Assembly (NCBI GenBank): GCA_012295275.1
Contig: CM022673.1
Span: forward strand, 2,170,001 to 2,234,000
Direction of reading: 5' to 3'
Source of the DNA: Chrysomallon squamiferum
Lineage: Eukaryota; Animalia; Mollusca
DNA: 64,000 nt
The notes under the pieces are model-generated. The model was not told where the DNA came from. It made no database searches and worked only from the letters and a program-made list of their open reading frames with translations. Below, one piece after another: positions 625-56,871 of the stretch. The translations under genes were made by a program, and so were the position numbers. Numbering within the stretch: position 1 is the stretch's first letter; each line of letters begins with the position of its first letter.

Positions 625-745
625 TTATTTATACAGATCTGCTCGCAGCACGTGATGTTACTTACCTATTCTGCTCTGATTCAGAGGCTGTGGTATGTGG
701 TTGATTCGGCCAGCTTCCCGTTTGCTCAGTGCAGGTTCTGTATAG
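625..745 (+). promoter_or_regulatory. Candidate TATA box and 5' non-coding exon of the lectin gene
   Basis: TATA-like tatttata at ~626-633. Donor-like ag|gtacgt after 745 could splice to the acceptor at 1126. No transcript support. Confidence 0.4.
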
Positions 746-1131
746 GTACGTTGTAGTATTTGTTTTAGAACTAGTTCAGCCAGTTTTCTGTTGGGCGTAC
801 TTGTAATAACGTCGACGTTTGCCGAGTAAAAAGGATTTGGCTTTGGTTTCTGACGTTATCTTCATAGTGAAAGGGATTTATATGTGATTGTTTTTTTCTA
901 AAGGAAAAAACAACAAAACTTCTCGACAATAATATAAATTGGAAAATTAAGTCGGTGCATTTGTTTGTGTGGATATTTGGAAATCCATAACCGTTCTTTT
1001 CTGAGCACCTACCAAAAAAAGGAAAAAAATAAGCAAAACCGGATAATACAACAACATTTTGATATCAGCTATATTAGCGTCAGTGATTTCTGTGAAGAGG
1101 AGTTTCAGAGAAATTTCATTCTGCAGATATC

Positions 1132-1617
1132 ATGGGTCAGGATGCAAGCAAAGGCTCGGCGCACTACACCAGCGTTCCTGGGATGATCCGCCATTGGTCG
1201 AGCGGGAAGTTCATTCATCCTTCCGGCGGCGAAGAGAACCCAGACAACGACACCAAACTGGTCGTGCACGACGCCATCCACGCCAACATGCAGTTCCGCT
1301 TCGTGCAGTTCGAAGACGTCTGGGGCTACATCGAACACGCGGCTAGCGGCAAGGTCGTGCACCCGCAGGGCGGAAGCCACGACCCGGACAACGGCACCAG
1401 TCTAGTGCTGCACGAAGACAGGCACGCGGCGGCTCTCTTCTCCTTCGACTACAGCAACCACCTCATTCAGCACCGCAGCGGCAAGTTCATCCACCCACAG
1501 GGCGGCAGCGTCAGCCCCGACAACGACACGGAGCTCGTGCTGCACGAAGACGTTCACGACGGCATGAGATGGGTCGCTGTGACCAAAGACAACGTGGAGA
1601 CTCCTATATACATGTGA
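1132..1617 (+). CDS. Mytilectin (MytiLec/CGL-like) beta-trefoil galactose-binding lectin, 161 aa, single coding exon
   Basis: Three internal repeats of H-x-x-SGK-x-x-HP-x-GG...PDN-x-T-x-LV-x-H-x-x-x-H, plus WGYIEH. These match MytiLec-1/CGL as recalled (SGKFLHPYGG...TKLVLHSDIH; WGYIKHVASGKIVHP). Acceptor ctgcag ends at 1126, 5 nt before the ATG. GC-rich codons in AT-rich flanks. No signal peptide and no aerolysin-like domain. Confidence 0.93.
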   Translation: MGQDASKGSAHYTSVPGMIRHWSSGKFIHPSGGEENPDNDTKLVVHDAIHANMQFRFVQFEDVWGYIEHAASGKVVHPQGGSHDPDNGTSLVLHEDRHAAALFSFDYSNHLIQHRSGKFIHPQGGSVSPDNDTELVLHEDVHDGMRWVAVTKDNVETPIYM

Positions 1618-6294: not shown

Positions 6295-6359
6295 ACTATA
6301 AAATATAACAATAAATAAATATAATACAGTACGTTTATTTATTTATTTATTATTTCAAG

Positions 6360-7037
6360 GAAGAAGAAAACATACCTCAAACGAAACCGGTTACCATTAT
6401 TCTTCTCGGAAAATCTGGACATGGCAAAAGTGCTTCCGGTAACAGCATTATGGGTAATGACGTTTTCGTTTCCGGTTTTTCGAAGAATCCCACAACACTG
6501 TCAGTGCAACAAGAGGAAACAGTTATAAACAAGAGATGCGTGACGGTTATTGACACCCCGGACCCCAGATTACTAACGAGGAAAGACATCCACTTTCTTA
6601 ATAAACTAAACGCTGTATTGCTGCTAGTTTTGCGATGCGGTACAAGAATGACAAAAAATGAGAGGACCAGTATCGACAAATTAAGGACAATTTTCGGATC
6701 CCAAGCTTTCACAAATCGAGGAATTATTCTGCTGACACATTGTGATCTCTTTCCATTGGTGAGAGTTCAAAAGGACACCTCTTTCCTCGATTCGGCATTA
6801 ATGGAGGAATTTGAAAACAGAATTGTGTTCTTAAGCAATAGAGAGGAAAATCACCTGACCCAGATCACTCAGATTGATGACGTAATGATTCTGGTCGACG
6901 ACATTTTACGTAGAGAACTCAATAATGTTAAAAGGAGTATGTCTCTTAAACAGTTATTATGCTGTTTGAAAAGAATAACTCCTACACTTTGTCAGATTAG
7001 CATGAAAATAAAATTTGTTATTGAGTTAATAATATAG
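6360..7037 (+). CDS. GIMAP / AIG1-type GTPase (main exon; upstream exon and start codon not identified)
   Basis: From acceptor tttcaag| the frame reads EEENIPQTKPVTIILLGKSGHGKSASGNSIMG (P-loop G1), then VTVIDTPD (G3), LLLVLRCGTRMTKNE...IFG (AIG1 conserved box), IILLTHCD (G4) and EFENRIVFLSN. Extends ORF 6450..7037 upstream. Confidence 0.88.
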   Translation, partial: EEENIPQTKPVTIILLGKSGHGKSASGNSIMGNDVFVSGFSKNPTTLSVQQEETVINKRCVTVIDTPDPRLLTRKDIHFLNKLNAVLLLVLRCGTRMTKNERTSIDKLRTIFGSQAFTNRGIILLTHCDLFPLVRVQKDTSFLDSALMEEFENRIVFLSNREENHLTQITQIDDVMILVDDILRRELNNVKRSMSLKQLLCCLKRITPTLCQISMKIKFVIELII

Positions 7038-8103: not shown

Positions 8104-8549
8104 CAACAAATTTTGAAGAAAAAAAATACGTGTACTGAAAATCAGTTAGTAAAAATATGATTACAAAAACTTTATTTACTATTTTGATAAAACTACTACT
8201 AATAACAAGAAGAACACACGTTTTGAATAACAACCTTTTAACTTGTCCCTAACTTCATTTAATCTAGAAAAACAGAAAGAAAGTACAAGAAGAAAGAAAG
8301 AAAAATAAAACATAAAAAGAAGGGAAAAAAAAGACAGTTTAAAAAATAAAAATATCAATAAAATGGAGAAATTTTATTTTATTTTGTTTTTCAAATACAC
8401 CAACACATCAATCTGGAATTACTTTTAGTAATTAATTGATTCTGAAATTGAAAACATCACAGACAAAAGCCGGGGGTCGCGAGGTCAGTTCTTTGGTTGA
8501 TTCCAGTTTTTAATTTTCTGATTCGGCAAGCAATGAACGACTATCTGAT

Positions 8550-8926
8550 CAAAGACTGTAACATATGTCCGTTACGAGAAAGTGTAGATGTGTCAAAGAT
8601 TGTAATATATGGCCGTTACGAGAAAGTGTAGATGTGTCAAAGATTGTAACATATGTCCGTTACGAGAAAAGATGTGTCAAAGAGATGTCCGTTGTGTATC
8701 AAAGATTGTAACATATGTCCGTTACGAGAAAGTGTAGATGTGTCAAAGATTGTAACATATGTCCGTTACGAGAAAGTGTAGATGTGTCAAAGATTGTAAC
8801 ATATGGCCGTTACGAGAAAGTGTAGATGTGTCAAAGATTGTAACATATGGCCGTTACGAGAAAGTGTAGATGTGTATACGATTGTAACATATGTCCGTTA
8901 CGAGAAAGTGAAGATGTGTCAAAGAT
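8550..8926. repeat. 44-bp minisatellite, about 8 copies
   Basis: Unit caaagattgtaacatatgtccgttacgagaaagtgtagatgtgt repeated head to tail, with one rearranged copy. Confidence 0.95.
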
Positions 8927-9011
8927 TAGAAATTAGTAACAGCACTGCAACACACACATACTGGAATTTCCTTTAACCGAACTAAACAATTCGGTAAAGT
9001 AGAAACAGCTA

Positions 9012-9885: not shown

Positions 9886-13605
<3,720 letters not shown>

Positions 13606-37662: not shown

Positions 37663-46741
<9,079 letters not shown>

Positions 46742-51986: not shown

Positions 51987-54779
51987 CTATACTTCAGAAT
52001 TGAAACCACTTTCTTTGTCGCAGCTTCTGTTGCTGGACAAATTTTGGCACGATCCTCTTGAATCTTCTGCTATCATAACTTTATGGATGGGAACTTTGTT
52101 AACTTTGTGTGCGGGAGAGTTAGTGGTTAGCAGCTGGACAACTTCTTCTTCGTCCACAAAGTCTGAATTAACAGGACATCTGATAGAAGTGACTCGAGAT
52201 TTCGAACGTCCTGGTTTCATGTAACCGTTGACCATCTGAGATATGAAGTCAAATTCTTCGTCGTCTTCAACGTAAGCCGAATCTCGACTGTTTCCACTGA
52301 GCAGCATATAACCTTCCTGTCCAGGAGTTAAACTGAACCTTTTTGAAGATGGATGGTAGAGTTCTATTAACTGCGGTTTCGTTAGCTCCACGAGACTGTT
52401 GGATCGACACACCGTCGACTGGATGAAGTCGTGTTCCGCCAACGACTGGGTGAAAAATCGAAGATGAATGTTTTTATCGACTTCTTCCGATCTCTTCTTG
52501 CGCGATCTAGAATGTTCTCTGTCGCCGATGATGTCACATAAAGGACCGTTCACGTCTGAGCTCTTTTTCCCCGGGCTTCTCTTTTTGTGTTTGTGTCTTT
52601 TCTTTGGAACTGCGCTGCTGTTGTTTTTATCGTGATCTCTATCGTGCGAGTCTTTGTTAGCGCAGCCAGATATCTGACAGTCGTTTCTGTCCATCTGAGG
52701 CGATTTGTGCGACTGGGTATCATGGTCATGACATACAACCGTTGGTAGAGACACTGCAGCATCGACTGCCTTGCCAACAGCAGACACAGGCAAATCGTAG
52801 TGGCAACAGTTGTTCGGGTCCAGAGGACTCGATTCAGTGCTGCAGCACGGAATGCTGTGTTTCCAGTTGTTTTTTCTAACCTTTCCCGTCTGACTGTCGT
52901 GGAACTCGACACTTTCTGAGCTGTCCTCGTAAGTCACAATAGGCAGAGCAATTTGTGTTTTTCCCGATGGGTCTTCGAAGTAAGAGTTGTCTCCCTTATA
53001 CACGTTAGCGTTGTATGCCGCGTCTTTGGAATGTTCCGATGACAGCTGTCCGTCGTTGTAATCCGTGCTCACGTATGTCTCAAGTGTGCTCGTGATTTTG
53101 TCTTGGTTGTCACTAGACGCAAACTCGCGATGAAGTATAACTTCAGAATCACCGATTCCGCGATACCTATATTTTTTATTATCTACTTTTTTAACTCGCT
53201 TTTTGTCTTTATTTGACTTAGATTGACTGTTGGCACATTTCAGACACGCCTCACAAACAGGTTTGTCCCATTTACCTTGCCTCTGTTCATATTCTGACTC
53301 CTGTTTTTCCGAAAGCCCGGTACTTTTCGTAGTTTTTCCGTAACTAACATCGACATTGTAGTTGAGAACTCCATACACGTTACTCCCAGAACTGACAGAA
53401 TTAGGATTCCCGTTATTCTTTTCTCCTGGCACCAAGCTGTTTAAACCCGAGGGTCTACGAGACGCTCCCCACGAGAGGGACGCGTGACGATTGCTGGCTC
53501 TGGAAAAATGTCGAGCAATCGAAGAATCTTCTAATCTACGACAAAGGAGGACGCAGTCCTTCTTAAACTGTTTCGTCAGAATAGCGTACAGGAAAGGATT
53601 TGCACAACTGTTGAGCGGCAGGACGAAAATTGTCAACACTTTGGCCTCGTTCAGCTGAATCAGCTCCTTGCCAAACGCTGCAGCAAGAGAGAGGATGGCT
53701 ATGGGCGCCCAGCACAGCAGATCCGTGAACACGAGTAACGCCATTCGTTTGGCAACTCGAGTGTCGTTAGAGTTCCACGCCTGCGAGTCGCGAATGCTGA
53801 TGTACATGAGTAGATAGCAGCTCAGTATCACAAAGAAGGAGAGACCGTTAAACACCATTATGTAGCAGACGTATCCTGTAACAGAAATACAGCGGTCTTT
53901 TAAAATGATGGAATAATATACAGCCATTAAATCACAGATTAAATGAACATAATATCCTGCAGAATAATTTGTCTTTTAAAACTATAGAATACTAAAAGCA
54001 ATTAAACACAGGTTAAGTTGATGGAGTCATACATACAAGAATCCAGCAGTATCATAATCTAAATATACAGAAACCTAGAAAAGATAAGTTAAAGAACATT
54101 TTTGTCTACAGAAATATTTATATTTTTAGCTGTGATCTAGGAGATATGGGTAGTATAATTAACTGTTAAATGTAATAATAATGATAATGGTAATGATGAT
54201 GATGATCATCATCACCTTGATCATGATTTAGCCAATTACAAAGCAGGATCAAACATTTAATACAGTATTTCACTCAAACGTAGATATATTTTCAGTAAAT
54301 ATTTAATTCAGGAGGACTGTTAGTAAGGGTTTTTGGATTGTATTTTTGATCTATTTACCTTTTGATATAAGACTTTTGATCTCAAATGGGAGACAGACGG
54401 CAAATGTTCTGTAGTCGCTAATACCAAACAGTGGCAGACTTGCAAGCAACGTGGCGTAAATCCATCCACCAAGCATAATGTAACCTTTAAAAAATAAATA
54501 ATAATAATAATAATAAAAATAGTAAATAACCTTATATACGTATGTATGTATGTATGTATGTATGTATGTATGTATGTATATGTGTGTATATATGCATGTA
54601 TGCATGTAACGACATATAGTATATTAAATGCATTAATATAGACATGTGTGTGTATATATATATATATATATATGAATGAATATTTGACTGTGTTTATATT
54701 ATTTTATATATGACTGAATCAAAGACAAAGACAGGGACAGAAAGAGATACAGACAGAGAGAGAGAGATGAGAGAGAGAG

Positions 54780-54875
<96 letters not shown>

Positions 54876-56871
54876 GAGTGTTTTAGTGACAGTCTTTTGT
54901 TGAGCTGCATGGCGTGTGTGATCGCATAAAATCTCTCGAGAGTTATCACAGTCAGTGTGAAAACACTCAGCTCGCTGGACAGCACTCCCAGAAACCCGGA
55001 TATTACGCAGCCAGGACTCATCTGCCACCAGATGGCGTGTTTCCGGAACTCTCCTGAAGATTAAAAACAAAAAATAAATTTCCTGTTTGAACTGAAGGGT
55101 GTATTACTCAAAAAAAAAAAAAAAAAAAAAAAAAGGAAAGAGATAAAAATAAAGAATAATGCACTGATAAGATTGCAGTTTAAATAAATACACTTTAAAT
55201 AAAGTGATCCCAGATTTAAGTTGACGAGTACCTAAAGTAGAAGCGTCCACAATGGCGAGAAAGCCGAGGTAGATGCCCATGAAGAAGTCGGCGCAGGCGA
55301 GGTTGCAGATGAGGAATCGAGGGACGTCCATCTTCGAACGGCTGGTGACGGACACGAAGAGGACGACGCCGTTGCCGAGAAGAGCCAGCATGAAGACAAT
55401 CCAAACCCCGCAGCGCAGAGACCACCACCCAAACAAGTCATCACACGGCATGAATGGTCCTGGAAATATTAGTGGAAGTAGCATTTGTAGTTGCAGTAGT
55501 AATATCAGTATTTGTAGTAGCACTTGTAGTTGCAGTAGTAATATCAGTATTTGTAGTAGCATTTGTAGTTGCAGTAGTAATAGTAGTATTTGTAGTAGCA
55601 TTTGTAGTTGCAGTAGTAATAGTAGTATTTGTAGTAGCATTTGCAGTTGCAGTAGTAATAGTAGTATTTGTAGTAGCATTTGTAGTTGCAGTAGTAATAG
55701 TAGTTCCTGTAGTAGTAATAGTAGTTGTAATAGTAATAGTAGTATTTGTAGTAGTAATAGTAATTATTTTACAGGTAGTAGTATTTGTAGTTGCAATAGT
55801 AATGGTAGTTCTGGTAGTCGTAATAGTGACTGTAATAGTAATAGTAGTATTTGTAGTAGTAATAGTAATTATTTTACAGGTAGTAGTATTTGTAGTTAAT
55901 AGTAATGGTAGTTTGGTAGTAGTAGTGTAATAGTTTGTATTTGTAGTAGTAATAGTAATTAACAGTAGTATTTGTAGGCAATAGTAATGGTAGTTCTAAT
56001 AGCAGTAATGGTTGTAATAGTAATAGTAGTATTTTGTTGTAATAGAAATAGTAGTTGGGTAGTAAGTGGTAATAGTTGTAATAGCAACAGCAGAAATAGT
56101 ACTTATGGTAATGGTACCATAGCAACAGCAGTAGTAGATAGTAGTAATAGCAGCAGTGATAGCAGTAGTAGTAATGGTGTTGGTGGCTAGTAGTAATAAT
56201 ATTGGTTTGCCATGGAGTTGTTTTAGTAATAGTAACAATGTGTAACAGTTTTACTTGTAGTTGTTGTTGTAGTAGTAGTAGTAGTTATTGCTGTAGCCGT
56301 CCGTAATAAAAATGGATTAAAATGAGTCGTAGTTAAAGTAGTAGTAGTAGTAGTAGTAGTATAATAGTAGTAGTAGCAGTTTAGTAATTGTTCAGATAGT
56401 TATATTATAATAATAGCATTGGTAGTAATTTGTTGTTTTTGTTGTTGCTGTTGCTGTATGGATAGAGATGAAAGAAAAAAAAACAAACAAAAAAGCAGTA
56501 ATAGCAGATGTAGAAGTAAATAATGAAAATATCTCAGTATTTCACCTGGTTTAGGTTTGCAGTTGATGGGCGGTCTGGCAATGACCAAGTCGTGGGCGTA
56601 CTCTCTTGGTTTGTAGTCTTCCAGGTATTTGCCGCTTCCTTCTGGAAACGTTGATTCGTAGTCCGGGAAATCAGTGTCGTACGAGCCGAAGTTTTCAAAA
56701 ATATTGTCAACCACGAACGACTGATTTACAGCTAGAAGGAAAATTTAATAATCATAAAACTAAAAATAAAATAGACAGACAGATAGGTAGACATACATAC
56801 ATACAGAGGGACAGACAGATAGATTAAAAATAAATTCGATGAACAAACACAACATAAATTGATTATATTAC

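Follow-up and report, generated by a model that had tools for sequence, protein, structure and literature searches.

A stand-alone mytilectin of Chrysomallon squamiferum with a conserved, predicted N-myristoylation signal

Results

The lectin gene and its surroundings

The window, i.e. the whole stretch of 64,000 nucleotides of Chrysomallon squamiferum DNA that was analysed (contig CM022673.1, positions 2,170,001 to 2,234,000), carries near its beginning an ORF for a proto-type mytilectin (Table 1). The ORF is closed by two stop codons and displays a GC content of 0.60 and a GC3 of 0.80, as against 0.26–0.39 in the non-coding flanks. The encoded protein (161 aa, pI 5.65, no Cys) matched MCL, MytiLec-1 and CGL with an E-value of about 1e-49 (4e-49), residues 18–156 of the query being aligned on residues 5–143 of the chain. 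Identity to these three lectins is approximately 50%, and the alignment is ungapped with an offset of 13 residues, from which it follows that the N-terminal extension of 13 residues relative to MytiLec-1 and CGL, as claimed by the first-pass annotation, is real. By inspection, this extension is hydrophilic and lacks a hydrophobic core of the kind found in signal peptides. An AlphaFold2 model based on a 28-sequence alignment (mean pLDDT 92.9) contains twelve strands and superposes on MytiLec-1, MCL and CGL with a TM-score of 0.90 and an rmsd of 0.8, and the three HPxGG repeats of a mytilectin-type beta-trefoil are present.

Pfam returned a sub-threshold RicinB_lectin_2 match and nothing else, while the ESM Atlas matches were generic ricin-type clusters. 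Of the named relatives, a 'lectin-like' protein of Gigantopelta aegis is the closest (79% identity over the full length). The lectin had been described as lacking a pore-forming domain, and indeed the ORF stops at 1617, and a tblastn search of the window with five chimera-length relatives, in which the lectin part alone finds a counterpart, detected no pore-forming tail and matched positions 1132–1614 only. The AIG1 frame listed in Table 1, which belongs to an immune-linked family, lies 4.7 kb downstream of the lectin.

Table 1. Features of the window and their positions
Feature	Positions	Strand	Basis
Proto-type mytilectin ORF, 161 aa, beta-trefoil lectin	1132..1617	+	Single exon; translation, structure search, tblastn
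Met1-Lys7, predicted N-myristoylation motif (Gly2, Ser6, Lys7)	1132..1152	+	Translation; disordered in model
Residues 8-13, variable spacer linking motif and domain	1153..1170	+	Alignment columns 8-14, 18% identical, with indels
Beta-trefoil domain, residues 17-150, 12 strands	1180..1581	+	AlphaFold2 model, fold search
Ala48 at CGL Asp35 (sugar site 1), Asp lost	1273..1275	+	Offset-13 mapping; PMC6316223
Asp96 = CGL Asp83 (sugar site 2), kept; Ala in four closest relatives	1417..1419	+	Offset-13 mapping
Tyr107-Ser108 at MytiLec-1 dimer Phe-Phe position	1450..1455	+	Alignment; one-residue numbering shift inferred
Asp140 = CGL Asp127 (sugar site 3), present in each of the five proto-type members	1549..1551	+	Offset-13 mapping
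Start context of ATG 1132: A at -3, G at +4	1126..1135	+	Sequence
Candidate upstream exon containing ATG 655, in frame if joined to 1127	638..745	+	Frame arithmetic; no splicing seen
Candidate GT-AG intron	746..1126	+	GT at 746, AG at 1125-1126; contigs X1, X2 and X3 cross without a joint
AIG1 (GIMAP-type GTPase) domain	6315-7037	+	240-aa stop-to-stop frame, E 2.6e-28
44-bp tandem repeat	8549-8927		Two arrays (3.2 and 5.3 copies; matches 90-94%)
Glycosyltransferase family 10 (fucosyltransferase) frame	9886-11055	-	Both Pfam domains
B-box zinc-finger frame, TRIM-like	40270-41568	+	Pfam
Rhodopsin-family 7TM receptor, two pieces	51987-53975, 55104-55763	-	Pfam; second frame opens with low-complexity repeat

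The start codon

The first in-frame stop upstream of ATG 1132 lies at 1093. An A at -3 and a G at +4 constitute a strong start context by the Kozak rule, and the context of ATG 1132 is stronger than that of ATG 655, which, if unspliced, opens a 33-aa upstream ORF ending at 756. The first-pass annotation had pointed out that 655–745 is open and could be spliced in phase 1 to 1127, and the arithmetic is correct: the segment is 91 nt long, is followed by a GT at 746 and an AG at 1125–1126, and keeps the frame to 1132. Such splicing would add 33 residues and bury the motif. It had been named as one of the results that would speak against the proposal, and spliced transcripts were sought in RNA contigs placed on 445–2620, which are assembled contigs from one study (X1, X2 and X3). 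In three of three runs the contigs extend over both candidate splice sites, by more than 31 letters to either side, and none shows a splice joint, bearing in mind that they may contain DNA by carry-over; a fourth run (X5) gave no contig in this region. Contig cover is absent at 445–656 and past 1647, which hints at RNA over DNA and is not evidence of it; six of the seven coding differences in the contigs are silent and none lies in the motif. A stronger argument for ATG 1132 than these contigs is that the NCBI models of the G. aegis relatives begin at the same Met-Gly. MytiLec-1 does have an upstream exon with an in-frame ATG, yet the isolated protein is without that extension (PMC4882566). 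Two metagenome scans for genomic loci of orthologues, aimed at the conservation of the upstream exon and its ATG, gave 149 and 434 pattern matches, none of which was confirmed. Overall, we regard translation from ATG 1132 as very probable.

The N-terminal motif and its conservation

The protein begins M-G-Q-D-A-S-K, and thus Gly2, Ser6 and Lys7 occur as originally described. Gly2 directly follows the initiator Met and Ser6 is in place, which fits the GxxxS/T consensus for N-myristoylation (PMC2133112, PMC3724820), while Lys7 is favourable as it makes a salt bridge in NMT structures (PMC7048800). Furthermore, residues 1–7 have pLDDT values below 50 in the model, as befits the accessible, unstructured N-terminus of an N-myristoyltransferase substrate. 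Counting against the modification, a dual-lipidation screen in yeast found Gly8, which the window lectin has, to be disfavoured (rare), and Lys7 to be neutral (PMC3724820). Judged from its sequence, the lectin is likely to be N-myristoylated.

Across the five close stand-alone members compared (P0001, P0002, P0003, P0015 and P0016), columns 2–7 are 93% identical, columns 8–14 18% and the domain 80%. As conservation equal to that of the motif is reached by 34 of the 158 six-column windows, and variability equal to that of the spacer by just one, the distinctive part is the contrast of a conserved tip with a freely varying spacer. All 12 fetched peltospirid-type homologues start with Met-Gly, and Gly2 is retained down to 43–44% identity; Ser6 and Lys/Arg7 are each found in nine of the 12, while the remaining three carry Asp6, which is outside the consensus. 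These 12 proteins share ancestry, and the figures are therefore counts and not independent trials. By comparison, a Met-Gly start occurs in two of 158 Met-started non-peltospirid homologues, this background being the set fetched before the search seeded with MG-proteins (two near-duplicates dropped), since a background that includes the results of the MG-seeded search is inflated for Met-Gly. A hand count of the 124 sequences in File S1 of PMC10744619 gave Met-Gly in five of the five peltospirid entries (three with Ser6) and in two of the other 119 mytilectins, with Gly2 plus Ser/Thr6 in 0/119.

The 12 peltospirid-type proteins represent four paralogue classes. Every class includes a named G. 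aegis protein, and the scaffolds of these four differ in length; P0003, P0015, P0030, P0166 and P0169 were assigned to their classes by likeness. Two of the four classes are chimeras of approximately 300 aa, one with Ser6 and the other with Asp6 and Cys10. Fisher tests on '4 of 4 paralogue classes' were discarded because the classes share ancestry. In the chimeric class of P0030, P0165 and P0166, Gly2 and Asp6 are accompanied by Lys/Arg7 and by a Cys10 that is conserved and might be palmitoylated. The conservation of the motif in orthologues, named beforehand as a check, holds there and in the three other paralogue classes. Conversely, the motif had been presented as the property of one variant; it is common to pore-forming-type paralogues and consequently belongs to the family of this lineage, not to the stand-alone lectin alone. 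In a scan of prokaryotes, one weak mytilectin-like match was noted (1/101; Actinomadura L001, 3001–3147, 38%, E 6e-6).

History of the motif

A careful tree was calculated from 50 chosen lectin domains (LG+G4), with the first seven residues omitted for rows starting with MG. A single clade (support 86/91, not starred) unites the nine core peltospirid-type rows; nested in it, with no resolved branching order, are the stand-alone group (99/97) and the two chimeric groups (100/100). A quick tree placed the stand-alone clade as sister to the Ser6 chimeras (SH-aLRT 93), an arrangement unresolved in both careful trees and dropped. Chimeric mytilectins are considered ancestral (PMC10744619, section 2.2), and since the chimeric paralogues carry the motif as well, the sequences suggest that it is likely older than the loss of the pore-forming tail.

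The search seeded with divergent MG-proteins exposed two further MGxxxS clades, both well supported. One (100/99) consists of six rows in which MG(A/Q)AGS is invariant, among them the krill protein CAL4061825 of Meganyctiphanes. This krill protein is annotated as starting at the MG motif; the remaining five rows are longer automatic calls with the motif inside them, and three cluster members of this clade, each of 161 aa, begin at it. Members of this krill-containing clade (P0140, P0181–P0185 and the cluster members) have sugar sites that are degenerate and end in an acidic tail that contains Cys. The krill mytilectins in File S1 of PMC10744619 carry signal peptides rather than the MG motif. 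The second clade consists of four MGGAxS rows (100/100). On the careful tree the MG motif needs at least three label changes, and for an earlier set a single clade of 12 MG rows was rejected (p-AU 0.005), possibly due to the single bivalve-like row P0029. The chimeric mytilectins P0029 and P0164 start with MGxxxT and group with bivalve-type rows. The occurrence of MGxxxS in separate clades reflects either repeated gains or an old subfamily.

Sugar sites

CGL has three sugar sites built from His, Gly, Asp, His and Asn/Glu residues (PMC6316223), and 11 of these 15 positions are identical in the window lectin by the offset-13 mapping. All six site histidines and two of the three site aspartates are kept, the changes being Asp35 to Ala, Asn119 to Asp, Asn27 to Asp (as in MytiLec-1) and Glu75 to Gly. 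The four closest relatives lack the site Asp at both site 1 and site 2, and in the other MG clades most sugar-site residues are gone. These losses weaken the glycan arm of the original proposal, and glycan detection is not supported in the form in which it was put forward, as the sites are partly degenerate. From the sequence, it is a fair expectation that one or two sites work, possibly with altered specificity.

Membrane binding and dimerisation

According to the two-signal rule, stable anchoring of a myristoylated protein needs a palmitoylatable Cys or a polybasic cluster (PMC5170614). The window lectin has no Cys, two Lys/Arg residues in the first 20 and a pI of 5.65, and thus lacks a second membrane signal. 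Dimerisation could double the lipid per complex. A Phe-Phe double mutant renders MytiLec-1 monomeric (PMC6983116), and this Phe pair is absent in five of five stand-alone proto-type members, being a feature of the mussel proteins and not general to the mytilectin family. A two-copy structure prediction, run without an alignment, scored 0.00 and counts neither for nor against a dimer. Hence the description of the lectin as 'anchored' or 'tethered' was overstated: with no Cys, no basic cluster and the Phe pair lost, weak and reversible partitioning onto membranes, rather than a fixed anchor, would be somewhat favoured by analogy with proteins that obey the rule.

Discussion

Comparison with known lectins and trefoils

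The window lectin resembles MytiLec-1, MCL and CGL (PDB 3WMU/3WMV, 5VBK and 5DUY/5F8S) in fold, size, the six site histidines and the absence of a pore-forming domain and, as far as inspection shows, of a signal peptide, but differs by the MGxxxSK-bearing extension of 13 residues, the site-1 Ala, Tyr-Ser in place of the Phe pair and the pI of 5.65. With the G. aegis 'lectin-like' proteins XP_041365421/422/423, which bear automatic names, it shares 75–80% identity, length and the N-terminal motif, whereas the site-2 Asp of the window lectin is Ala in them. It has the clade, the single-exon ORF and the Met-Gly start in common with the peltospirid chimeras (PMC10744619, File S1; G. aegis XP_041368082 and XP_041377859), while the C-terminal pore-forming-type domain is a feature of the chimeras; as Pfam is blind to the chimera tail, the label 'pore-forming' is that of PMC10744619.

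Galectins act as sensors of vacuole damage and are leaderless galactoside binders, as the window lectin is predicted to be, and the role hypothesised here would be similar. Since the window lectin is a beta-trefoil and not of the galectin fold, it can at most be said to work like a galectin damage sensor; to our knowledge, no galectin is lipidated. Hisactophilin, a His-rich actin binder of Dictyostelium and no lectin, is likewise a beta-trefoil, and was not among the fold-search matches listed for the lectin model. It bears an N-terminal myristoyl group according to titles cited in PMC9945329, while that of the window lectin is predicted. No lipidated mytilectin was found in the literature searched (titles and starts of abstracts, mostly of non-subscription papers), in agreement with the first-pass annotation. 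The mytilectin family and the peltospirid chimeras are already published, and NCBI has the G. aegis orthologues with automatically assigned names; that literature contained no mention of the lipidation signal they share or of a stand-alone form in peltospirids.

A tentative mechanism and its alternatives

As a whole, the explanation that we tentatively prefer, at somewhat less than even confidence, is that of a myristoylated cytosolic mytilectin which samples membranes weakly and is held firmly at exposed glycans. The mytilectin would be myristoylated co-translationally at Gly2, and would likely stay cytosolic, associating with the inner faces of membranes in a loose and reversible manner. Firm capture would take place only where galactose-type glycans are exposed, for example at damaged vacuoles that hold bacteria. 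Glycan binding as the second signal at damaged or symbiont-containing vacuoles is speculative and, in our estimation, rather improbable. Peltospirids house intracellular symbionts in bacteriocytes (PMC7895826), which is a setting and not evidence of lectin function. The earlier interpretation stands in part, namely as regards the motif, its conservation and the lack of an observed spliced upstream exon, and is not supported in its original form as regards 'anchored', 'this variant' and glycan detection.

The myristate could alternatively serve non-classical export by a membrane or vesicle route, the lectin acting outside the cell like the mussel mytilectins. Export of the HASPB type requires a second acyl chain, and the window lectin has no Cys. 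Nevertheless, Leishmania HASPB is secreted non-classically and its N-terminal acylation is required (PMC3491706), other lineages acquired a signal peptide at the corresponding N-terminal position on three occasions (PMC10744619, section 2.2), and the chimera tail is predicted to be similar to pore-forming proteins that usually act from outside (PMC10744619). Moreover, the mussel mytilectins are without signal peptides yet described as extracellular (PMC10744619, section 2.2), so that a missing signal peptide is no proof of a cytosolic role; on the other hand, these mussel members are exported without any MG motif, and we consider the export route unlikely. About equally doubtful is that the myristate is a structural or switch element as in hisactophilin, the trefoil drifting from sugar binding and its main ligand not being a galactoside. 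A myristoyl switch is known in that beta-trefoil (titles cited in PMC9945329), sugar-site residues decay across the MG-bearing clades and not one of the five proto-type members retains the dimer Phe pair, but the window lectin keeps all six site histidines and two of three site aspartates, a variable six-residue spacer lies between motif and domain, and the protein is not enriched in His as for a pH switch (15/161, equal to 13/148 in the motif-free scallop-type mytilectin P0026).

That the lectin is not myristoylated at all, with Gly2 kept by descent or for Met removal and acetylation, an N-degron or a binding site, appears less probable again. MytiLec-1 is N-acetylated (PMC4882566), three peltospirid-type proteins are without Ser6, and the single clade of the nine core proteins means that one gain covers three classes; set against this, Ser6 and Lys7 are kept along with Gly2 while the following residues are free to vary, and GxxxS recurs in separate clades, a single clade of the earlier 12 MG rows having been rejected. 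Splicing of the upstream exon, for which the frame and the GT-AG sites are compatible and the MytiLec-1 gene offers a precedent, is judged quite improbable given the Met-Gly starts of the relatives, the stronger context of ATG 1132 and the unspliced contigs.

Implications for the mytilectin family

Gastropod mytilectins have been reported from Peltospiridae only, and the set in PMC10744619 records proto-type mytilectins just for Mytilus, Lingula and pectinids, the stand-alone peltospirid form not being included. The present finding corrects this published distribution, as stand-alone mytilectins also occur in peltospirid snails. A far-reaching extension, which we regard as a long shot, is that the whole mytilectin family of the peltospirid vent snails has turned inward, with lipid-tagged lectins and lectin-pore-former chimeras on the cytosolic face of symbiont vacuoles recognising exposed or escaped bacteria and helping to control symbiont load, and with lipid-tagged mytilectin-like trefoils having separately arisen or persisted in the krill-containing clade. 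Mytilectins have been described as lectins that are soluble and leaderless, with no settled view of how they travel or where they act. If true, a myristoylation signal that is conserved would represent a third targeting mode besides the absence of a leader and the signal peptide, and the lipid would also be carried by lectin-pore-former chimeras, in animals that house bacteria intracellularly.
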